Below are positions 6,724 through 23,590 of a stretch of DNA of 24,000 nt, one piece after another. The position numbers and the translations under genes are program-made. The number at the start of each line of letters is the position of its first letter. The stretch's first letter is position 1. The DNA comes from an uncultured Thermoplasmata archaeon (GTDB taxonomy: Archaea; Thermoplasmatota; Thermoplasmata; SG8-5), in the NCBI GenBank assembly GCA_964354755.1, contig CAYHBA010000008.1:62725-86724 (forward strand), read 5' to 3'. Below the pieces are notes generated by a model, which saw only the letters and a list, made by a program, of their open reading frames with translations, did no database searches and was not told the origin of the DNA.

Positions 6724-8154
6724 TTGTTTAGAAGCGAGGGAATGAACATGGGAAGAAATAGCATGAAGTGTGCCGCATTGATAATAGTCCTGGCAATGAC
6801 ATTAGTGGCATTCAATAATGTTTCAGCCGGGGAGCCGGAACTTTCAGATTCATGGAGCGCAACATATGAAAAAGGGACATTCCGGCATGGCATGTTTGGC
6901 GGTTTCAACGGCGGTTCCGCGGACGATTTTATGGCGATTTATTCAGAAGAGCCATCGAACCTAACCGGTAAATATGAAACATTCCTTGTTCTCTTTGATG
7001 GACAGGATGGCGATATCATCTGGGAAAAGAATTTCTCAAATGAACTTGAGCCGGTATCTATCGTCAGTCCGGTAGAAACAGGCGGGAAGGTCAATGCGCT
7101 CATTTGCATATTAAAACTAACTGAGATTCCGGTTGCTAACACGAATTACACCACTACAATGAGCCTGGTGGGTATGGTCATGATTGACGGAGAAAATGGT
7201 AACATTCTCTGGACCACGAATAATTTCGGGGTTGTAGAAACACAACTAGTCTCGATCGATGGAGAGGATGTCATCCTAGCTGGCGTATTCAACACATTCA
7301 ACACGATTGAAGGCGGCCTCTACACAATCGAGCCCGATACGGGCCATTACAGATTCACAGGCATCGAATTCGATACCTGGCTTTCCAATTTTTTGATCGA
7401 CGAAACCCCGAACAGGGACGATGTTGTTATCATTTATGGGAACCAGGCCATCGAGGCTTACGAAATGGGCGCCTGGACCATGTTGTGGGAATACGATTTC
7501 TTCGATAACGATGTGTATTACTCAGATGGGTACTCTGGACTGCTGAACGGAGACGGAACAGTTGCTTTCCATGCTGGGAAGGGCGACGCTTACAATTCCT
7601 TGATTGTCCTGGACAAAATAACAGGCATGGAAATATCTGCAACCAATCTTACTCAAACAGGGGTCTCACAGCTATCGTTCATGTGGAATGGAGATTTTAC
7701 CGACGATGAAACAACTGATTACCTTGCGATGGGATTCGCCGACGGAAATTATAGCATGATCGCCATTGACGGCAGCAACATGAACGAGATGTGGCGATTT
7801 GACGCAGAGAAATTAATTAGTCAACCGGAATCCGCAAACCTCGAAATAATAGACCTTGACCGAGACGGCACTGATGATGTGCTGGTTACCATGGACATCC
7901 GGGTGCTCGCCCTCTCCGGAGAAACCGGGGAAATAATATGGGAACATGAGCTGCCTGCCAAACCAGATTATCTCATTTTAGGGGATTATAAGGACGGGCA
8001 GCCGAACCTCGCATACCTCAGTGAGGGCACCGTCTATTGCATGAACCTAGAGATACCGACTTCATCCAATTCGATTTTTGTCCTCATCATTGGAATTATC
8101 GCAATACTGATGATTGCCACAGCCGCCATAATGTTGATAAGAAGAAGGAGATAG
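6724..8154 (+). CDS. Secreted, C-terminally membrane-anchored beta-propeller-like surface protein with FG-GAP/VCBS-like Asp-rich loops
   Basis: ORF of 476 aa. The true start is probably Met9 (6748, GAGGG 7 nt upstream) or Met14 (6763), giving the signal peptide MKCAALIIVLAMTLVAFNNVSA. Asp-rich loops recur (NGDGTVAF, NGDFTDDETTDYL, DLDRDGTDDVLV). The C-terminus has a TM segment plus RRRR. Several N-X-S/T sequons are present, and GC is low. Confidence 0.7.
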   Translation: MFRSEGMNMGRNSMKCAALIIVLAMTLVAFNNVSAGEPELSDSWSATYEKGTFRHGMFGGFNGGSADDFMAIYSEEPSNLTGKYETFLVLFDGQDGDIIWEKNFSNELEPVSIVSPVETGGKVNALICILKLTEIPVANTNYTTTMSLVGMVMIDGENGNILWTTNNFGVVETQLVSIDGEDVILAGVFNTFNTIEGGLYTIEPDTGHYRFTGIEFDTWLSNFLIDETPNRDDVVIIYGNQAIEAYEMGAWTMLWEYDFFDNDVYYSDGYSGLLNGDGTVAFHAGKGDAYNSLIVLDKITGMEISATNLTQTGVSQLSFMWNGDFTDDETTDYLAMGFADGNYSMIAIDGSNMNEMWRFDAEKLISQPESANLEIIDLDRDGTDDVLVTMDIRVLALSGETGEIIWEHELPAKPDYLILGDYKDGQPNLAYLSEGTVYCMNLEIPTSSNSIFVLIIGIIAILMIATAAIMLIRRRR

Positions 8155-8208
8155 ATGCGTAAAAGTTCCCCTTCAGGACCATTTCAATAACGTTGGAGTC
8201 GTTGTAAA

Positions 8209-8280
8209 GGCCCCGTACAGATATTTGGCTTCACTGACAGCTATATCCAAACAATAGCCAAATATTGGACGGGGCTACGA
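8209..8280 (-). repeat. H1: 72-nt acceptor-stem-mimic hairpin element downstream of tRNA-Gln
   Basis: The minus-strand sequence is TCGTAGCCCCGTCCAATATTTGGCT-[25-nt loop]-AGCCAAATATCTGTACGGGGCC. The outer stem GCCCCGT/ACGGGGC matches the tRNA-Gln acceptor stem, and the inner stem is 10 bp. It is 52/72 identical to H2. Confidence 0.65.
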
Positions 8281-8302
8281 CTAAAAACGATAAAAATCGG
8301 AG

Positions 8303-8374
8303 TAGCCCCGTCCAGATTCGAACTGGAGTCTGGAGATCCAGAGTCTCTAATGATAACCACTACACCACGGGGCT
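8303..8374 (-). tRNA. tRNA-Gln (anticodon CUG), 72 nt, no encoded CCA
   Basis: Manual cloverleaf. Acceptor stem AGCCCCG/CGGGGCT (A1-U72) with discriminator A. D-arm GTGT-AGTGGTTA-TCAT. Anticodon arm AGAGA-CTCTGGA-TCTCC, with one mismatch at 27-43. The variable loop is 4 nt. T-arm TCCAG-TTCGAAT-CTGGA. Confidence 0.9.
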
Positions 8375-8402
8375 AGTGAGATGGCCGCGGATATTCGCAT
8401 GT

Positions 8403-8418
8403 CCATATTAAGCTTTTT
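8403..8418 (-). promoter_or_regulatory. TATA-box promoter of tRNA-Gln (AAAAAGCTTAATATGG on the minus strand)
   Basis: The TTAATAT box ends 30 nt upstream of the mature tRNA 5' end. The tRNA-Phe promoter in this window has the same box and the same spacing. Confidence 0.55.
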
Positions 8419-8432
8419 GAATCTTTCTGCAA

Positions 8433-8504
8433 AGCCCCGGACAGATTTTCGGCTTCACTGGAATCATTTTGGAAGCAATAGCCGAAAACAGGGCGGGACT
8501 GCGA
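8433..8504 (-). repeat. H2: second 72-nt acceptor-stem-mimic hairpin element
   Basis: The minus-strand sequence is TCGCAGTCCCGCCCTGTTTTCGGCT-[25-nt loop]-AGCCGAAAATCTGTCCGGGGCT. Two base pairs of the inner stem differ from H1 by compensatory changes (U-A to C-G, A-U to U-A). Confidence 0.65.
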
Positions 8505-8541
8505 ATGCAATCAGAGAAAAAACAGAGATGTTCCGCCCGTG

Positions 8542-8599
8542 TTCGAACTGGAGTCTGGAGATCCAGAGTCTCTAATGATAACCACTACACCACGGGGCT
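8542..8599 (-). pseudogene. Truncated tRNA-Gln copy: positions 1-58/59 identical to the intact gene, 3' end not foldable
   Basis: 8542-8600 is 100% identical to 8317-8375. After the T-loop TTCGAA the sequence is CACGGGCGGAAC instead of TCTGGACGGGGCTA, so neither the T-stem nor the acceptor stem can form. A T6 run follows (rc of 8517-8522). Confidence 0.75.
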
Positions 8600-8624
8600 A
8601 TAGAGCACCCGTGGTATCCCGCGT

Positions 8625-8639
8625 CCGTATTAAATATTT
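8625..8639 (-). promoter_or_regulatory. TATA-box promoter upstream of the truncated tRNA-Gln copy (AAATATTTAATACGG on the minus strand)
   Basis: The TTAATAC box ends 27 nt upstream of the pseudo-tRNA 5' end. It is homologous to the promoter of the intact copy, and both are followed by GGAC. Confidence 0.5.
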
Positions 8640-8724
8640 CCTGCATGGCCTAAGGAACAAAATATTAATACCATCATGTGATTCCGTGCCACAAATCTGT
8701 AAAAGATGACACGGAGATGTTGAA

Positions 8725-9045: not shown

Positions 9046-9081
9046 CGCAATGTATTTATCGCCGGGCGCGGATGAAGCCCC

Positions 9082-9492
9082 GTGAAAGGCATAACCAGGT
9101 TCGGGGTCTCGCTTCCCGCTGACCTCCTGGAAAAATTCGACCGGGAAATAGGGGGTAGGGGCAAGGGCAACCGCTCGAAGGCCATCGCTGACCTTATCAG
9201 GGACAGCCTGGTGGGAAAAGCCTGGGAGGCGGGAAAAGGGGAAGTTGTGGGCGTGGTGACGCTTGTCTATGACCACCACACATCCGAGGTCGTGAACAGG
9301 CTGCTGGAGCTGCAGCACGACGCCGATGTGACTATTTATTCGACCATGCACATACACCTGGACCACGACAACTGCCTCGAGATACTCGCCATACGAGGCA
9401 GGCCCCGGGATGTGAAGGCGTTCGCGGACAGCGCCAGGTCTGTGCGCGGGGTCGAGCACTCCGGGCTGATGGTGACCAGCAATCTGAAATAG
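9082..9492 (+). CDS. nikR: Nickel-responsive transcriptional regulator NikR (ribbon-helix-helix plus ACT-like metal-binding domain)
   Basis: GTG start. The N-terminus ITRFGVSLPADLLEKFDREI...NRSKAIADLIRDSL is an RHH motif. The C-terminal half carries HH/H-rich motifs (VYDHHTSEV, HIHLDHDNCLE) typical of NikR. Confidence 0.85.
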   Translation: MKGITRFGVSLPADLLEKFDREIGGRGKGNRSKAIADLIRDSLVGKAWEAGKGEVVGVVTLVYDHHTSEVVNRLLELQHDADVTIYSTMHIHLDHDNCLEILAIRGRPRDVKAFADSARSVRGVEHSGLMVTSNLK

Positions 9493-11258: not shown

Positions 11259-14200
11259 ATGAAAAACCTGGTTGCAGTCGGAGTGTGTGCATTGTTGGTT
11301 TTAAGCGGCACGGTTCCATTGACAAGCGTTGCCCATAACGATTTACTGGCGAATGATGATGTCGCGAATCCGGCGCCCGCCTATTTCTCTCCGGATGAAA
11401 TCAAAGCAGGACCGCTCAATGACGAACTGAAAATAGCGCTTCAAGACGACATGATGGACATGAACCTATGGAATCCGGACACCAATTCGATATGGAAAAC
11501 CGACCAGCTCCAGTACAATTTCGAAGGCCTGATGGCCTTCAATCCGGACTTCGAGCTCTATCCGGTCCTGGCCGGGGAAAACCCCACAGGCCCCAATGGC
11601 GCCGATGCATGGGTGAGCGGAGATGGAATGCAGATTTCCATCAACCTGAGGCAGGACGCCGCGTTCACGGACGGGAAGCCCTTCACATCTATGGATGTGG
11701 TTTTTTCCTATCAGACAGCTGGATGGGATATTTATGCTTCGAACGTCTTGAACCCGCTCTACCATTGGGACGGGACCTTTGCCAAGTATGACGGCGGAAC
11801 GAGCCACATCGGGGTCGAAGCGAACGGGACGTACAGGGTCGATTTTTTCCTAGAAAACCCGTATTCGATGTTCTGGTACCAGACACTCTCGATGCCCATC
11901 TGCCCCTGGCATATCTGGCAGAACCATACAGTTTCACTGGACCCTGGAATGCATCCCGGATATAACGTGACCGGGGAGTCGGGGTTGGACTACTGGTACG
12001 GCAACAGCCTCTCGGAAACAGATGCGACCATCGGCACAGGGCCTTTCTACCTTGAATCCTGGGCTCTGGGCAATGGCTCGGTCGTAAAAGCCTATGGGGA
12101 TTACTGGAACAAGAACGGCACTGTGTCCTGCGGAGGGGAAGAATATCCGTGCTACCCGAAGCAAGTGAGGACCATCATATTCGAGATAATCCCACAACTA
12201 GACGATTCTGTAGCTGCGCTCAGAAACGGTTCGGTGCATCATATTGCGGCATCGCTTTCCCCAGCTTATTACAACATGATGAAAATCGATCCGAACATCG
12301 GATTCGAGACGCCTGACAGCGATGGATTTTTCTACATATGCTTCAACCTGAGAAAGGGAGCCATGACCGATGTTAATTTCCGCAGGGCCGTCGCGTACTG
12401 CGTGGACAAGGATTACATCGTTGACAATATCATGGACGGGTACGGCTCACCGGGAAGCGTGCCAATCTCGATCACATCCCAGATTTACGTGAACACGTCC
12501 GTGCCTGACTGGATTGCCGAGGGTAACCTGACGAAGGCGATGATGCTCCTGGATGCATCCGGATATGTTGATTACGACGGCGACGGCTGGAGGGATATGC
12601 CCGACCATTCGCCGCTCAGATACGACATACTCACGCCGCCGATGGATTACGACCCGGTACGGGCTAACGCCGGAATCCTCATCGAATCGAAGCTCAGGGC
12701 CGTCGGGCTTAATGTGGCCTCAGTGCCAACAGATTTCGACACAATTGTTAGTTCCGGATACGTGTCCCTCGATTTCGACATGTTCATCCTTGGATGGAGC
12801 GTGGGCTTGTTCCCGGAAACGTACCTGTGGGACTTCTTCCACGGGGATTCTGATATAGCCCTCAACCCATATGGCACAAATGCCGCTGGATATCACAACG
12901 CTTCCGTTGACAGCATGATCGATGCCCTGCAAACCGAGATGGACAACGATGCCAGAGCACAGTTGGTAAAAGACATCTGCGGCGCGACTATGATGGATGT
13001 AGTCTATGACACTCTATATTACAAGAAGGGCATCGAGGCTTACCTGCAGGATGCCTGGCAAGGTTGGCTGCCGGTCCTCGGGTCGATTTACAACAGATTC
13101 TCCGTGTGCAATTTGACGCCACCCAGCTACCTTTATCCGTCATACGGCAATCTGGAGGTCGGCGTTTATGTGCCCGACAACATCCGTGCGGGCGCGAACC
13201 GCACATGCTATGTCCTAGTGACGGACAACGACCAACCAGTCGACAACGCCCATATAGTCGTGCAGACCAACCTGGGAGTCACACTTGACGGATATACCAA
13301 CTTGGGCGGTTGCGTGGAATTCGATTATCATGTCCCGTTTGCGGAGGGCCAAGCCTTCTTCTCGGCGAACGCAACCAAGGGAGTGGACACAGGCGGGGCG
13401 TTCAAGGTTTCTTCCCTGTTCACGGACAAGTCCTTTGCCAGTCTGAGCCTTTCGACCCAGAACGGGGTGGTCTCCCCGCTCGGGAACACCACCGTCACTG
13501 CAAGAGCCACAGACAGGGAGGGCATGGGAGTTCCAGGTGCGCTGGTTGACGTGGACACCGCCCTGCTGTTCGGCTCGGTGGATAGCGCCCAGAAGACTAC
13601 TGATAGCCTGGGATTCGCGAATTTCACATACACGGCTCCCCCGGCTAGTTACATGCCAAACTCCAACAGGTACGAGCAATTCCGCGCCTCGGTTTCCGTG
13701 GCCGACACAGTGGTCCAGGAGGTCCAGGAGGCATGCCTTGTCCTAGCCATTGCTAATAATGTAAGGGACTGGCATTCGGTGGACATCGTTAATGTGGACG
13801 ATTATGTCATCTCGGGCAACAAGGCCGGAACACTTCAGTTAACCACGGATGTCACGGTATCTGTAGTCGATGCCACCGGCGCTTCGGTCATTGGGACGAC
13901 AGTCTATGTGGACACGGACAATTCGGTTGCAATTCCGGATTCTCCGAGCCACGTCACCAATGGGGCCGGAGAGGTTGTCTTCACCCTGTCAGCGGTGGAT
14001 GGAACGACCAGCCGAAGCACTAAAGTGGATTTTCATGTAAATAAAATGTACTCGACATCGGACTGCTTCCTACTTTTGAATCACAACGAGACAGACCCGA
14101 CAGGCGGATACGCAGCGGACATAGATTTCGAAGCCAAAATTGAACATGGCTCATCCGCCACAGTGACTGCCACTGTTTACGACGAGACGGGAAATCCGGC

Positions 14201-17200
14201 CCCGGGCGTCCCATGCCAGTTCTTCATCCCGCCCACAGCGGAGGGCATACCTGGGCAGTTCCAGGGGGGAGACGAGTGGATATGGTGGGAATACGGTACC
14301 GATTGGGACTTGGGCTGGTCGGCCAGTTACATCGGCAGCTGGTACGGGAACAATGCCTCGATGACGGACGGTACCGGCAGACTTGTGGCTACGATTTCCA
14401 CGCCCTCGTTTATAGCCGATACGCTGATACCTCTGGAATTCGGCATCGGTGGCTACTGGGTGACAGAGACGTTCAACAAGACTGCTAACAACTGGTGGAT
14501 GGAGGACTATGGAGATTCTGGCAATTGGGTTCCGCCGACCACAGATTGGTCAGACGGGAATTATTACTGGCGAGCCGCCGACTTCACCCTGGTCGACTCC
14601 GCAATCCTCTGGAGGGGACCGGCCGCGACCATGACCGATGTTAACCTGGGCGCACCATACCTTTCCTCCGAGGACCAAACCGGAACAATCACCATGACAT
14701 TCCAGAATGAGAGCGGCGCATTGGCGAATTCCAATGTCAAGATTTCCGAGGGAATAGCAAATCCCCCGCTGCTTGACGAAGGGCCGACGGATGGCGCAGG
14801 AATGAGGAGTTATCTTTATGATTCCGGAACCGGCCAGTTCGACGCCGGAATGGGATTCACTTCCATGGTGACTGAACCGGGATACTCACAGTTCCCGTTC
14901 ACATTCTATCTGCCATACGTTAATCTGCCAGACAAATGTATCCTCACTGTGGAACCTTCCGCGAAATTGGTCGCGCCCAACGGAACAGTGAATTTCACAG
15001 CCAGGTTGACGGACATCTTCGGAATCCCGATAGCCGGAGCCACAATCTGGGCGGGAACCCTGTCCAACACCACGGACGCCCTGGGAATCGCGGGATTCTC
15101 GAAAACATTGGCAGGTGCAGGCATCCAGAACACAAGCTTCACCGTGACCTTCGGAGGCAAGACCGGGAGTATGACAGCTGGTGTCATAGTGGGGGAGGTG
15201 TTTTCACTGACAACACACTTGCCCATCCGCATCAACTCCAACGCGGACTTCGACGAGGCGCACGGGGTAGTGAACTGGGCGACGGGGAACGGGACGCAGG
15301 GGAACCCCTGGATAATCGAGGGCTGGGATGTTAACGGGACTGGGTATGGATATTGCATTTATATTGGGAACACGACTGAGCATTTCATCGTGAGTAATTG
15401 TTATCTGCATGAGGCAAGTGGTTTCATGTCTCCCTTTTACTTCTTCAATCAGGGACTAATATTGTATCATACAACGAATGGAACTATCGAGAATATTATC
15501 GCTTATGGAAACGGTTTAGGCGTTCAACTGTGTTACTCACCAGGAAATGATGTTATCAACAATTCAGTGATTTCGAATGTGAATGAGGGGATATGGATTC
15601 ATGATTCCAGAGATGTTTTAGTGAGTGGCAACAATGTAACTTCCAACGAATACGGTATTGATATCACTATCTCTGACGGTGCCTTTGTTGTGAATAATAC
15701 AGCCTCCAACAATAATGTTGGCATATCTGCATCCCAGAGTGATGCGATCATAGTAAACAATATAGCCACCATGAATTTAGAAAGTGGAATTTCTGTCGGT
15801 GGTCCAGATAGTATTTACTTTATTAATAATAACACGATTTCAATGAACAATATCGGCATCACGCTGAGTGGAACAATCGGGGTTACCGTCAAGGATAATG
15901 CAATGCTCGGGAACAGCATGTTTATCTCCGGTGTTCTGGAACACTGGAACTCACATGATATCGATGTAACCAACACTGTCAACGGCAAACCAGTCCGATA
16001 TTGGAAGAATCAAGTTGGCGGAACCGTGCCCCCGGGCGCGGGACAGGTCATATTGGCGAATTGCATGAATGTCACGGTCGAGGGCCAGAATCTAATCAAC
16101 GGCTCGGTCGGAATATTGATGGGGCTCTCTGTAAACAATATAATTACCGACAATAACGCATCCTTAAATAATTTAGCTGGCATATACATGAATTTCCACT
16201 GCAACGGGAACCTCATCACCGGCAACATAGTATCAAATAATTATGACGGCATCTGCATGGACCCCTTATGCGATGGTAACACAATATCCAACAATACTGC
16301 AAATTCGAATTCCAGGTCTAGTATCTACCTCTTGGTTTCTGATGATAATGTTATTTGTGACAACGTTATTTCCAACTCGGGGATCGGCGTATATCTATAT
16401 GTGTCTGAATATAATATTATCGCTCGGAATACCTTTTTATACAATGGCTTTGGAATCTATTCATATATTGCGAGTCTTAATAAAATAAATCATAATAATT
16501 TCATTAACAACACAGAACAAGCGTTCGACGAAGATTACAACCAATGGGACGACGGCTACCCCTCAGGTGGCAATTACTGGTCTGACTACAACGGAACTGA
16601 TGCGTATTCCGGTCCTGGCCAGAACGAATCCGGTTCAGACGGCATCGGGGATACGCCTTATTTGTTCACGGGCGATCAGGACAACTATCCATTGATGACA
16701 CCCTGGACCCCCCCTGTACTTCTGGAGTTCACCATCCCTCTCTCCCCCGGCTGGAACCTCGTCTCAATCCCCCTGGAAATGGCCTCGACAGACATATCCA
16801 CAGCCCTGGCTTCCATTTCTGGCCAGTACGATGTAGTGAAATATTATTCGAGCACCGACGCTTCCGACCCCTGGAAAACCTACCGGCCAGGGAGCCCGAC
16901 GAACGATCTTGCGAGCATAGACAGGACCATGGGCCTGTGGATACACGGGACAGCCTACTGTAATCTGACCGTGACAGGCGAAATTCCAGCCACCACCCAG
17001 ATTCTTCTCCACGCCGGATGGAACCTTGTCGGCTACCCATCCATGACTGAGCAAACAGTGGCCAATGCCCTCTGGGGCACCGGGGCCTACATGGTCGAGG
17101 CCTTCGACCCAGGTTCTCCCTACCTGATATCCGAGATAGGGCCGACATACATGATGAAGCCGGGGGAAGGGTACTGGATACATGTTCCCGCTGACACGGT

Positions 17201-17219
17201 TTGGACTGTGAATTGGTAA
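11259..17219 (+). CDS. Giant (1986 aa) secreted surface glycoprotein: signal peptide, family-5 solute-binding (OppA/DppA-like) domain, Ig-like domains, NosD-type parallel beta-helix repeats, duplicated C-terminal GWNLV module
   Basis: Signal peptide MKNLVAVGVCALLVLSGTVPLTSVA. Residues about 50-620 look SBP_bac_5-like (FYICFNLRKGAMTDVNFRRAVAYCVDKDYIV). Residues about 625-1315 hold several Big/invasin-like segments. Residues about 1318-1760 are PbH1-type repeats (NNTISMNNIGITLSG, ITGNIVSNNYDGICM), followed by GIGDTPY...DNYPL. I counted 38 N-X-S/T sequons by eye. There is no C-terminal TM segment. Confidence 0.85.
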   Translation: MKNLVAVGVCALLVLSGTVPLTSVAHNDLLANDDVANPAPAYFSPDEIKAGPLNDELKIALQDDMMDMNLWNPDTNSIWKTDQLQYNFEGLMAFNPDFELYPVLAGENPTGPNGADAWVSGDGMQISINLRQDAAFTDGKPFTSMDVVFSYQTAGWDIYASNVLNPLYHWDGTFAKYDGGTSHIGVEANGTYRVDFFLENPYSMFWYQTLSMPICPWHIWQNHTVSLDPGMHPGYNVTGESGLDYWYGNSLSETDATIGTGPFYLESWALGNGSVVKAYGDYWNKNGTVSCGGEEYPCYPKQVRTIIFEIIPQLDDSVAALRNGSVHHIAASLSPAYYNMMKIDPNIGFETPDSDGFFYICFNLRKGAMTDVNFRRAVAYCVDKDYIVDNIMDGYGSPGSVPISITSQIYVNTSVPDWIAEGNLTKAMMLLDASGYVDYDGDGWRDMPDHSPLRYDILTPPMDYDPVRANAGILIESKLRAVGLNVASVPTDFDTIVSSGYVSLDFDMFILGWSVGLFPETYLWDFFHGDSDIALNPYGTNAAGYHNASVDSMIDALQTEMDNDARAQLVKDICGATMMDVVYDTLYYKKGIEAYLQDAWQGWLPVLGSIYNRFSVCNLTPPSYLYPSYGNLEVGVYVPDNIRAGANRTCYVLVTDNDQPVDNAHIVVQTNLGVTLDGYTNLGGCVEFDYHVPFAEGQAFFSANATKGVDTGGAFKVSSLFTDKSFASLSLSTQNGVVSPLGNTTVTARATDREGMGVPGALVDVDTALLFGSVDSAQKTTDSLGFANFTYTAPPASYMPNSNRYEQFRASVSVADTVVQEVQEACLVLAIANNVRDWHSVDIVNVDDYVISGNKAGTLQLTTDVTVSVVDATGASVIGTTVYVDTDNSVAIPDSPSHVTNGAGEVVFTLSAVDGTTSRSTKVDFHVNKMYSTSDCFLLLNHNETDPTGGYAADIDFEAKIEHGSSATVTATVYDETGNPAPGVPCQFFIPPTAEGIPGQFQGGDEWIWWEYGTDWDLGWSASYIGSWYGNNASMTDGTGRLVATISTPSFIADTLIPLEFGIGGYWVTETFNKTANNWWMEDYGDSGNWVPPTTDWSDGNYYWRAADFTLVDSAILWRGPAATMTDVNLGAPYLSSEDQTGTITMTFQNESGALANSNVKISEGIANPPLLDEGPTDGAGMRSYLYDSGTGQFDAGMGFTSMVTEPGYSQFPFTFYLPYVNLPDKCILTVEPSAKLVAPNGTVNFTARLTDIFGIPIAGATIWAGTLSNTTDALGIAGFSKTLAGAGIQNTSFTVTFGGKTGSMTAGVIVGEVFSLTTHLPIRINSNADFDEAHGVVNWATGNGTQGNPWIIEGWDVNGTGYGYCIYIGNTTEHFIVSNCYLHEASGFMSPFYFFNQGLILYHTTNGTIENIIAYGNGLGVQLCYSPGNDVINNSVISNVNEGIWIHDSRDVLVSGNNVTSNEYGIDITISDGAFVVNNTASNNNVGISASQSDAIIVNNIATMNLESGISVGGPDSIYFINNNTISMNNIGITLSGTIGVTVKDNAMLGNSMFISGVLEHWNSHDIDVTNTVNGKPVRYWKNQVGGTVPPGAGQVILANCMNVTVEGQNLINGSVGILMGLSVNNIITDNNASLNNLAGIYMNFHCNGNLITGNIVSNNYDGICMDPLCDGNTISNNTANSNSRSSIYLLVSDDNVICDNVISNSGIGVYLYVSEYNIIARNTFLYNGFGIYSYIASLNKINHNNFINNTEQAFDEDYNQWDDGYPSGGNYWSDYNGTDAYSGPGQNESGSDGIGDTPYLFTGDQDNYPLMTPWTPPVLLEFTIPLSPGWNLVSIPLEMASTDISTALASISGQYDVVKYYSSTDASDPWKTYRPGSPTNDLASIDRTMGLWIHGTAYCNLTVTGEIPATTQILLHAGWNLVGYPSMTEQTVANALWGTGAYMVEAFDPGSPYLISEIGPTYMMKPGEGYWIHVPADTVWTVNW

Positions 17220-23009: not shown

Positions 23010-23083
23010 GCGGTAGTAATTTAGCCTGGGTGAATGCTTGACTGAAGATCAAGATGTCGCTGGTTCAAATCCGGCCTACCGCA
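23010..23083 (+). tRNA. tRNA-Phe (anticodon GAA), 74 nt, no encoded CCA
   Basis: Manual cloverleaf. Acceptor stem GCGGTAG/CTACCGC with discriminator A. D-arm ATTT-AGCCTGGGT-GAAT. Anticodon arm CTTGA-CTGAAGA-TCAAG. Variable loop ATGTC. T-arm GCTGG-TTCAAAT-CCGGC. Confidence 0.9.
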
Positions 23084-23590
23084 CTCTGATTATTTTATGA
23101 TCAAATACGTGCGGTAGGCCTCTCACCGTCTATTGCATATTTATTGTTTCAAGTGAAGACGGCGATCCAGCCTACCGCCTGTGCAAGAGGTGGGAGTGCA
23201 CCGATATGGAGGCCTCTCTCAGCCTATTAATTCTAATATGAAAGAAGTGAAGGCTTCGATCCGACCTACCGCACTCTGATTATTTTATAATCAAATACGT
23301 GCGGTAGGCCTCTCGCCGCCTATTGTTTAGAAAATGTTTAGAGTGAAGGCAGCGATCCGGCCTACCGCCTGTGCAAGAGGTGGGAGTGCATAGATATGGA
23401 TAGGCCTCTCTCGGGTTTATTTATAAAATGCCAATAGTGAAGCCCTCGACACGGGCTAACTCACTTCGCTCGGATATGTAAAAAACGTGAGTTGGCCCTG
23501 TCTCGGCCTATCGCTTATAGAATAATAGAAATGAAGGCCTCGATCCGACCTACCGCACTCTGATTATTTTATGATCAAATACGGCGGTAA
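23057..23590 (+). repeat. Six-unit tandem array (period 94-96 nt) of hairpin units derived from the 3' end and trailer of tRNA-Phe
   Basis: Units start at about 23057 (inside the tRNA), 23153, 23247, 23343, 23437 and 23531. Shared frame: GTGAAG-N4-CGATCC-[arm]-[22-28 nt loop]-[complementary arm]-CTCTC-N4-CCTAT-[AT-rich block]. Families A (3 copies) and B (2 copies) alternate, and there is one divergent unit C. Confidence 0.85.

Follow-up and report, generated by a model that had tools for sequence, protein, structure and literature searches.

A truncated tRNA-Gln copy and a family of hairpin units behind tRNA genes in a Thermoplasmata archaeon

Introduction

In Escherichia coli, the RtT repeats (Rfam RF00391) lie behind the tyrT tRNA-Tyr genes as 178-bp tandem units, each of which ends in the 3′ end of that tRNA. 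In archaea, non-canonical tRNA introns at position 59/60 and split tRNAs are found in Thermoproteales, Nanoarchaeum and Caldivirga. Here, we analyze a tRNA-Gln(CTG) locus of an uncultured Thermoplasmata archaeon, located in a 24,000-nt stretch of DNA (the window; positions 62,725 to 86,724 of contig CAYHBA010000008.1, assembly GCA_964354755.1). An intact tRNA-Gln gene and a truncated copy of it stand there in tandem, each followed by a hairpin unit (H2 behind the intact gene and H1 behind the truncated copy). These units belong to a family, here called the H family, whose members stand behind about ten different tRNAs.

Partial and complete tRNA copies around integrated elements are well documented in archaea (PMC9897764, PMC3293823). 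The PYG1 island of Pyrococcus yayanosii lies between a partial and a complete tRNA-Gln (PMC9897764), and a 5′ fragment of tRNA-Thr has been described in Caldiarchaeum (PMC3293823). Hairpins with positional guides are found in the insertion sequence (IS) IS608, where the left cleavage site is 19 nt 5′ of the hairpin foot, the right-end site is 10 nt downstream and a 4-nt guide is located directly 5′ of the foot (PMC3201880). Guides engineered for 12- or 17-nt targets redirect IS608 to unique targets (PMC5934647). Gene-less derivatives of the IS200/IS605 family (palindrome-associated transposable elements, PATEs) and the REP/REPIN sequences are mobilized by Y1 (HUH) transposases (PMC3201880, PMC5934647, PMC8266576).

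The truncated tRNA-Gln resembles the tRNA fragments of integrated elements, as the partial copy is mistaken for a tRNA by gene finders and its identity to the intact gene stops abruptly within the gene. Unlike them, it lies across a gene-free gap of 165 nt, has kept the 5′ 59 nt together with its own promoter, and has a small hairpin repeat as its partner instead of an integrase island. It also shares with the 59/60 introns and split tRNAs a break at T-loop position 59/60, a 5′ portion with its own promoter and complementary flanks, but the would-be exon is decayed and variable between species, the bulge-helix-bulge appears incomplete, a terminator lies inside, and close relatives dispense with the copy. 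The H units resemble the RtT repeats in that they follow a tRNA gene immediately, as tandem units that each close with a copy of its 3′ end; they differ in their length (~96 nt), their inverted tRNA-end copy and conserved hairpin, their occurrence behind about ten different tRNAs and their archaeal host. The RtT covariance model had no match at its gathering threshold or at E ≤ 10. With IS200/IS605 and REP elements, the H units have in common a hairpin with a conserved loop, a putative guide 5′ of its foot, a candidate site ~20 nt upstream and another on the 3′ side, a strict orientation, head-to-tail insertion and the presence of a Y1 gene in the genome. In contrast to that family, the putative H guide is 12–13 nt long instead of 4 nt and specific to a tRNA end, there is one hairpin and not two, and the tRNA-end repeat may be a target-site duplication, which that family does not make. 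The H units are nearest in layout to RtT and to IS200/IS605/REP but are assigned to neither. A literature search returned no description of such tRNA-anchored hairpin units in archaea.

Materials and methods

The assembly under study, G000, is a binned draft of 30 contigs, and the tRNA-Gln locus is on the minus strand of its contig C8. The comparison set consisted of seven other genomes of the genus and the metagenome contig L187, which comes from a very close relative. The two tRNA-Gln modules were compared by pairwise alignment (A1). A sequence was counted as a tRNA when it matched the cloverleaf of Rfam RF00005 at the gathering threshold (≥ 29 bits). The H family was defined in G000 by a simple motif search, followed by a gapless alignment of the 17 copies (A2) and then by a covariance model of the family (R1). 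A set of 41 genomes was searched for the family; the positions relative to tRNA genes were recorded for 71 copies fetched from relatives, and 74 distinct relative copies were used for the covariation analysis. The fold stabilities of H1 and H2 were judged against 200 shuffles. Inverted copies of tRNA ends were surveyed across the 29 tRNA genes of G000 as exact inverted matches of ≥ 8 nt to the tRNA's 3′ end within 70 nt.

Results

A reading of the locus made from sequence alone (the sequence-only reading) had proposed that a module of about 225 nt is duplicated on the minus strand, that tRNA positions -1 to 59 are fully identical between its copies while the flanks have diverged, and that the upstream copy has a well-placed TATA box and a T6 terminator. 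All of this holds. The direct repeat D1 (8289-8380 / 8514-8605) has a spacing of 225 nt, and the alignment contains one unbroken block of 59 identical nucleotides (8600..8542 = 8375..8317) that runs from tRNA position -1 to standard position 59 in the T-loop. In the flanks, identity falls to 65% (60 nt upstream of this block) and 66% (170 nt downstream of it), and outside the block the modules are about 65–73% identical. Upstream of the truncated copy, a TTTAATA box (~8628-8634) has the same distance to the gene as the TATA boxes at other tRNA genes of this genome, and a T6 run is located downstream at 8517-8522. Oligo-T is an archaeal termination signal. The 165 nt between the two tRNA-Gln copies contain no open reading frame (ORF).

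ARAGORN calls a tRNA-Gln(CTG) for both copies. The Rfam tRNA model accepts the downstream copy (8303-8374, 55.9 bits), the sole valid gene for the CTG isoacceptor in the assembly, and scores the upstream copy (8528-8599) at 20.3 bits, below the cut-off, with mismatches in the T and acceptor stems. The sequence-only reading had called the 3′ end of this copy destroyed; its T and acceptor stems are indeed broken, but its 3′ end has been replaced rather than decayed. After TTCGAA, the upstream copy continues with CACGGGCGGAAC, and about 30 nt farther on GTCCCGCCCTG forms the near-complement of CACGGGCGGAAC. The tRNA is thus joined, at T-loop position 59/60, to a recurrent hairpin (the X hairpin, ACGGGC...GCCCTG), which consists of ACGGGC and variable bases, a loop, the complementary variable bases and GCCCTG. 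Its variable top co-varies; compared with module B, the downstream module, two pairs of the X arms are altered on both sides in A1. The X hairpin is present at seven or more other loci (the tRNA-Phe array, the tRNA-Gln(TTG) array, C2:213328, C6:80302, C6:59444, C16:32092, C21 and upstream of tRNA-Ala(TGC)), and in the related genome G006 it is found at the identical tRNA junction.

We consider it probable that the upstream tRNA-Gln (copy A) is a chimeric pseudogene, in which a working promoter and tRNA nucleotides 1–59 have been joined to an X-type copy of a two-hairpin DNA repeat. As an object it is of an ordinary type, a partial tRNA pseudogene kept identical by gene conversion, and it is the junction partner that is unusual. 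Its promoter (promoter A) is very probably active in G000, a prediction based on its being the sole promoter of tRNA-Gln(CTG) in the genome G005 and in L187. Copy A itself would probably yield just a short, dead-end transcript that stops at the T6 run.

The X-type hairpin also occurs at all three tRNA-Ala genes (C6:80302, C6:59444(-), C2:~277590), where it reads ACGGGCTAATTTCC ... GGAAATTGGCCCT and is located ~25 nt upstream of the B recognition element (BRE)/TATA box. This placement suggests that it is a conserved upstream module of that tRNA family.

We found orthologous tRNA-Gln loci in all seven other genomes of the genus. On contig C159 of G006, the order is promoter, tRNA 1–60, X hairpin, H core, tRNA 3′-end copy, promoter, intact tRNA and two H units, and this contig runs collinear with G000 over the whole stretch between copy A and H2, both included (78% identity). 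The sequence that follows copy A in G000 is nearest to that of copy A in G006 (0.76), compared with 0.66 for its own copy B, and the segment downstream of copy B in G000 is nearest to that of G005 (0.82). Judged from these sequences, the duplication is older than the split between G000 and G006, because the flanks group as orthologues. The tRNA parts follow a different pattern: they are 100% identical within G000 and within G006, and 92–93% identical between the two genomes. All four differences between the genomes (positions 26, 43, 44 and 57) are common to both copies of a genome. These shared lineage-specific substitutions indicate that the 59-nt identity has been maintained by gene conversion or unequal exchange between repeats 225 nt apart, in other words by concerted evolution, which was one of the two explanations that the sequence-only reading had offered.

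The other explanation, selection on a 5′ tRNA fragment, is not supported by the comparison. In the two nearest relatives, G005 and L187, promoter A is followed by one intact tRNA and by H2; their flanks are 89–97% identical to G000, and neither has a counterpart of the segment between the two copies. Their arrangement is the exact product predicted from recombination between the 59-nt repeats. The 5′ fragment is dispensable, since the nearest relatives carry this single-copy recombination product; the truncated copy is therefore old, homogenized, unstable and dispensable. In the genome G003, an apparent remnant of the H1 3′ arm is located upstream of the tRNA-Gln promoter. The G006 orthologue of this arm reads ATCTGGACGGGGCA and has defects unlike those of G000.

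The tRNA-Gln(CTG) genes of G000 (8374-8303), G005 and L187 carry C43 and hence an A27·C43 mismatch atop the anticodon stem; elsewhere in the genus, position 43 is U and pairs normally.

We next describe the hairpin units. H2 (8209-8280) and H1 (8433-8504) share 73% identity over 74 nt, close to the 52 of 72 positions given before. Both fold as long hairpins (-28.9 kcal/mol, z = -4.0, for H2 and -25.6 kcal/mol, z = -3.1, for H1), and none of the 200 shuffles was as stable. Two inner-stem pairs differ between H1 and H2 by compensatory substitutions (A-T vs T-A and T-A vs C-G in A2), as the sequence-only reading had noticed. It had further described the outer stem as the acceptor stem of tRNA-Gln. 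That description must be amended, because the H1 outer stem (AGTCCCG/CGGGGCT, with one G·T pair) is no literal copy, and for the H2 5′ arm a perfect 13-nt inverted copy of the tRNA's 3′ end is a more fitting description than a copy of its 5′ end.

A complete H unit is ~96 nt long and consists of a T-rich linker of ~23 nt, an inverted copy of the tRNA's 3′ end, a hairpin and a direct copy of the tRNA's 3′ end. The inverted arm corresponds to the last 10–13 nt of the tRNA, including A73 and the next C, and the direct arm to tRNA positions 59-72/73. The core between them has a 7–10-bp stem and a 25-nt loop bearing CTATTG, (A)TTG and AGTGAAG. Across the 17 copies of G000 and the 74 relative copies, these motifs and the closing C-G and T-A pairs are invariant or nearly so. 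Both stems covary: in G000, 81% of cells are paired compared with 58% in shuffles, and double-change cells number 81 compared with 31. The relative copies give the same picture. The inner stem is 89–90% paired, with many double changes. The proposal of a conserved H fold is supported.

In G000, the motif search, A2 and R1 identified 17 strong H copies, located behind the tRNAs for Gln (CTG and TTG), Phe, Met, initiator Met, Glu, Asp, Arg and Pro, with a few orphans. An inverted 3′-end copy follows 10 of the 29 tRNA genes, in nine of these ten cases at an offset of 21–22 nt, whereas random genomic sites have one at a rate of 1.4%. The sequence-only reading had seen the same elements at the tRNA-Phe locus, where we count five units, and had suspected that they are a general feature of tRNA loci in this genome; both points stand. 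Its view of the H element as a tRNA-Gln with a replaced interior is not supported, as the same core is found behind the tRNAs for Phe, Met, Glu, Asp, Arg and Pro as well as in dispersed MITEs, and is a shared module framed by copies of the local tRNA's end.

The H family is restricted to the genus: six of seven genomes of the genus carry it, at 1–17 copies per genome, as does one genome of a sister genus. Single weak matches (E 2.7e-5 and 0.002) occurred in two other families of the order, and the remaining genomes of the 41 searched had no match. A pattern scan retrieved 111 loci from IMG/VR; 80 of these, which shared the loop motif, were screened with R1 and none matched, and a viral origin was rejected on this result.

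Of the 71 copies fetched from relatives, 52 are downstream of a tRNA gene on the same strand, at distances of ~18, 112, 210 and 320 nt, which corresponds to arrays with a period of ~96–100 nt. Their arms match the tRNA of their own species; for example, they follow the change in the tRNA-Phe acceptor stem between G000 and G006. The number of units at the same tRNA varies between species. At tRNA-Pro(GGG), G006 and G007 have one unit and G000 has none, and the filled and empty sites differ by exactly one unit; in the filled sites the native trailer comes after the direct copy, and in the empty site it comes after the tRNA. The core, together with a Pro-like inverted-repeat hairpin, is also found inside a composite, hairpin-rich miniature inverted-repeat transposable element (MITE) of ~330–400 nt, of which G005 has at least four near-identical dispersed copies. 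These observations show that units are gained or lost whole, immediately behind a tRNA gene, that they multiply into arrays and that they travel in dispersed MITEs.

Two side observations concern the arrays and their ends. At C16:~9080-9180, a run of ~100 N splits the H array of tRNA-Glu(TTC) between two identical units, and may be a tandem-repeat assembly gap. Terminal H units have a conserved C(T/C)(G/A)TGCAAGAG after their 3′ arm (window 8209-8200 and many other loci, e.g. 23178-23190), and the reverse complement of this motif, CTCTTGCA, terminates other hairpin-rich repeats a few hundred nucleotides farther on. The two motifs probably mark the inverted termini of a second MITE family, one whose insertion site is position 72/73 of the tRNA-end copy.

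The features of the tRNA-Gln locus, and the tRNA-Phe array of the same window, are collected in Table 1. The window also contains an ORF of 1986 aa (11259-17219, +), 3 kb from the tRNA-Gln locus.

Table 1. Features of the tandem tRNA-Gln(CTG) modules and of the tRNA-Phe array in window coordinates
Feature	Position	Strand	Basis or remark
Promoter A, BRE/TATA-like, GGAAATATTTAATAC	8626..8640	-	Before the truncated copy; distance and sequence like other tRNA genes
tRNA-Gln(CTG) positions -1 to 59, 5′ part of the probable chimeric pseudogene	8542..8600	-	59/59 identical to 8317-8375
X-type hairpin 5′ arm CACGGGCGGAAC, replacing the T-stem 3′ strand and acceptor 3′ strand	8530..8541	-	Recurrent motif
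X hairpin linker/loop, with the T6 run 8517-8522	8500..8529	-	Read from sequence
X hairpin 3′ arm GTCCCGCCCTG, doubling as H1 5′ arm	8489..8499	-	Pairs with 8530-8541 at 8/9 positions
H1 core hairpin, 9-bp stem and 25-nt loop with CTATTG ... AGTGAAG	8446..8488	-	R1 74.8 bits
H1 3′ arm ATCTGTCCGGGGCT, decayed direct copy of tRNA-Gln 59-72	8433..8446	-	Alignment A1
Spacer and promoter B AAAAAGCTTAATAT of the functional gene, TATA 8405-8411	8376..8432	-	Promoter type kept in G002, G003, G004 and G006
Functional tRNA-Gln(CTG)	8303..8374	-	Rfam 55.9 bits and ARAGORN
T-rich linker, two T5 runs	8279..8302	-	Same-length linker behind nine other tRNAs
H2 5′ arm, perfect 13-nt inverted copy of the tRNA-Gln 3′ end	8266..8278	-	Inverted repeat I1, 100% complementary, 23 nt between arms
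H2 core hairpin, 10-bp stem and conserved loop	8221..8265	-	Inverted repeat I8; R1 77.3 bits; 97% identical in L187, 93% in G005
H2 3′ arm, direct copy of tRNA 59-72 with two changes	8209..8222	-	I10
tRNA-Phe, then five units of the same family, one with an X-type arm	23010..23590	+	Motif search, alignment, R1

Discussion

The explanation that we favor, and hold to be probable as a whole, combines the chimeric origin of the truncated tRNA-Gln with the view that the H unit is a non-autonomous hairpin element at the DNA level and not an RNA gene. Where selection acts on RNA structure, G·U is normally tolerated far better than A·C, and the mismatches of the H stems show no such preference (3 G·T compared with 7 A·C cells in the inner stem, and 53 compared with 69 in the outer stem). 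The DNA-level reading is based on this lack of G·T enrichment, on the insertion and deletion of units as blocks, on the variable copy number and dispersed copies, and on the oligo-T runs (T5-T7) that separate each tRNA from its H element and would terminate a transcript before it.

The alternative is that the H elements are functional RNAs or signals, either acceptor-stem mimics transcribed by read-through of the tRNA gene and freed by RNase P and RNase Z or aids to 3′-end formation or termination, with the truncated copy serving as a regulatory 5′ fragment. Several of the observations could be expected of such RNAs: the orientation is always that of the tRNA and the position is fixed, tRNA positions +1 and 72/73 mark the start of the 5′ arm and the end of the 3′ arm, the loop has conserved motifs, and covariation of the stems is seen among paralogues as well as orthologues. 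Units are moreover retained at the same tRNAs across species, where the core identity is 0.65 for the same tRNA across genomes compared with 0.57 for different tRNAs, and compensatory stem changes are seen between orthologues. Conservation of the stems is not decisive, however, as DNA palindromes can also be kept perfect by template-switch correction. The RNA account would have to accommodate, in addition to the mismatch counts and the terminators, that the unit number varies freely between species, that orthologous sites without units exist, that the 3′ arms decay differently in each species and that the truncated copy is missing in the nearest relatives. The H elements also had no Rfam match (in the window at gathering thresholds and in 8150-8700 at E ≤ 10), and the loop is unlike a standard K-turn and has a variable 2b position. 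We regard a role as RNA as unlikely. Readings of the loop as a K-turn, C/D box or H/ACA box were rejected in their own right: the 3′ strand is D-box-like (xUGA by the stem), the 5′ strand has no GA, the 2b position varies, and there is no consistent ACA box.

If the H units are DNA elements, their layout would correspond to one end of an IS200/IS605 or REP element, with a target or cleavage site, a linker of ~20 nt, a guide by the hairpin foot, the hairpin and a second cleavage site. The inverted tRNA-end copy would then serve as a long guide with two alternative pairing partners, the tRNA end and the 3′ arm of the same unit. The geometry is compatible with this: for nine tRNAs, a complement of 8–15 nt is located at the 21–22-nt offset, and the same arm pairs with the 3′ arm of the unit, so that both ends contain candidate cleavage sites. 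A long guide to the tRNA end would explain why the tRNA end occurs three times, why spacing and orientation are fixed and why arrays form, the last because the unit's own 3′ arm would again be a target. Gene conversion or palindrome correction would keep the arms matched to the tRNA. Every subfamily would be directed to the site behind a tRNA of its own and would build arrays by inserting again after its own 3′ arm; now and then it would recombine with the tRNA, and the chimeric tRNA-Gln copy would be one such case. We put forward this specific HUH/Y1 guide mechanism by analogy, as a tentative possibility. That the ~96-nt units are natural HUH/Y1-type mini-transposons, with a 12–13-nt guide programmed for the 3′ end of one tRNA gene, is an analogy that we consider doubtful; such units would be the equivalent in nature of IS608 with its engineered long guides.

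A possible source of the transposase activity is a single IS200-family Y1 gene (C3:174851-175267; NF033573, 115 bits), which is found in six of the seven genomes of the genus. At the locus C3:174384-175267 (L189:585-1468), it overlaps the stop codon of a GyrI-like/Cass2 gene, and most genomes of the order have one or two copies. This pattern looks domesticated and RAYT-like. A substrate with one hairpin is nearer to the REP/RAYT systems than to a classical IS.

A number of points weigh against the explanation that we favor. The units persist at the same tRNAs across species with compensatory changes, which would be compatible with a function. The Y1 gene is present in a single copy and has no recognizable IS ends; it also occurs in related families that lack H units, which refutes a specific co-occurrence of the two and makes the link between them circumstantial. 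A one-hairpin unit is not a standard IS200/IS605 substrate. To acquire a new tRNA specificity, both arms must change together, and the model offers no explanation for this. The direct tRNA-end copy could equally be a target-site duplication of 15–16 bp. The filled and empty sites do not reveal whether units were gained or lost, because a unit is also excised precisely when the two direct copies recombine. Finally, the tandem pair of G000 is known from a draft, binned assembly.

Other routes of insertion were considered and rejected. The idea of the inverted arm as a primer-binding site is contradicted by its pairing partner, which is A73 of the gene and the C after it instead of CCA, and G000 yielded no reverse transcriptase. 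Casposon or CRISPR-like integration was set aside as no Cas1 was found in this genome, and a TnpB omega-RNA as a zinc-ribbon search of it returned no TnpB match.

It is distinctly unlikely that the tRNA 3′-end repeats and the partial and complete tRNA-Gln copies are attL/attR scars of tyrosine-integrase elements that had entered the T-loop or the 3′ end and later shrank by deletion to mini-relics resembling cis-mobilizable elements (CIME). The archaeal precedents cited above speak for such scars, as do the 15–16-nt identity blocks, which are typical of attachment (att) sites. Here, the identity blocks within the tRNA are likewise short, the 59-nt block ending at 59/60 and the 14–16-nt copies of the 3′ end beginning there, and G000 has five tyrosine recombinases, one of them beside tRNA-Ala(TGC), a 14-nt copy of whose end is on another contig. 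None of the five genes is on contig C8, however, and no recombinase-encoding element lies between the partial and complete tRNA-Gln copies, which are only 165 nt apart. The constant size of ~96 nt and the constant layout at ten tRNAs would not result from random deletion, the sequence by the direct copy lacks the T-loop overlap that a T-loop integrase needs, and the inverted copy has no role in such a history. Eight of the nine H-bearing tRNAs are followed by DNA of normal GC content. The ninth, tRNA-Pro(TGG), has an H element that abuts a 5-kb island of ~31% GC, which would favor a scar at that site.

That island (C4:138690-143700) starts inside the 3′ arm of the H element and looks as if it had used the decoy copy of the tRNA end instead of the tRNA itself. 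No matching repeat was found at its far end. H units as regular borders of integrated islands were rejected, given this missing repeat and the single low-GC case among the nine. Elsewhere in the genome, tRNA-Ala(TGC) (C2:277678-278470) contains an intron, and the tyrosine recombinase gene lies after it on the opposite strand; the 14-nt copy of the tRNA's 3′ end (C21:20855-20868) is beside hairpin repeats and an orphan H element. The two sites look like the ends of one integrated element split across contigs.

An assembly chimera of two coexisting strains, joined through their shared 59-mer, is very improbable as the source of the tandem duplication: G000 is a binned draft and a very close single-copy relative exists in metagenomes, but the independent assembly G006 has the same architecture, both G000 copies carry the clade-specific C43 and A44, and two strain switches would be required.

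It is hardly credible that copy A functions as a tRNA-Gln gene interrupted by a 104-nt intron at 59/60 in the T-loop (structurally the twin of the canonical site 37/38), with the H1 3′ arm as its 3′ exon, since, although UUCG in G000 can be paired by eye with CGAA 2 nt before that arm, in a 4-bp helix with two 3-nt bulges like that of the tRNA-Met 37/38 intron, the joined exons give two mismatches among the five T-stem pairs and a discriminator U in G000, and an A1·A72 mismatch and G73 in G006, the exon decays differently in each species, the G006 T-loop is UUCA without a compensating change (central helix 3/4), no inner helix can be drawn, a T6 terminator lies inside the would-be intron and the nearest relatives do without copy A. 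The UUCG/CGAA helix as drawn by eye adjoins a 3-bp T-stem.

With its intron option, ARAGORN also made three implausible calls: a tRNA-Pro with a 554-nt intron (C10:52143-52794), a tRNA-Ser with a 62-nt intron (C4:58780-58941) and a "tRNA-Pyl" (C7:54475-54577). The tRNA-Pro and tRNA-Ser have no Rfam tRNA match, and the "tRNA-Pyl" is a real intron-containing tRNA (58.8 bits) of uncertain identity.

For annotation, the second tRNA-Gln called by ARAGORN is a pseudogene that should not be counted, and the same trap is probable in related genomes. The locus provides a clean and dated case in which a live tRNA gene and a dead fragment at a distance of 225 nt have evolved in concert, together with the deletion that such repeats invite. 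Across this genus of Thermoplasmata, hairpin units are located behind about one-third of the tRNA genes, with arms that correspond to that tRNA's 3′ end and with fixed spacing. If these were guide-directed, single-strand elements, nature would have extended the 4-nt guide of IS200/IS605 to a gene-specific length, which would bear on transposon targeting and on programmable insertion tools. If the H units were instead RNA signals, they would represent an unknown layer of archaeal tRNA gene organization.

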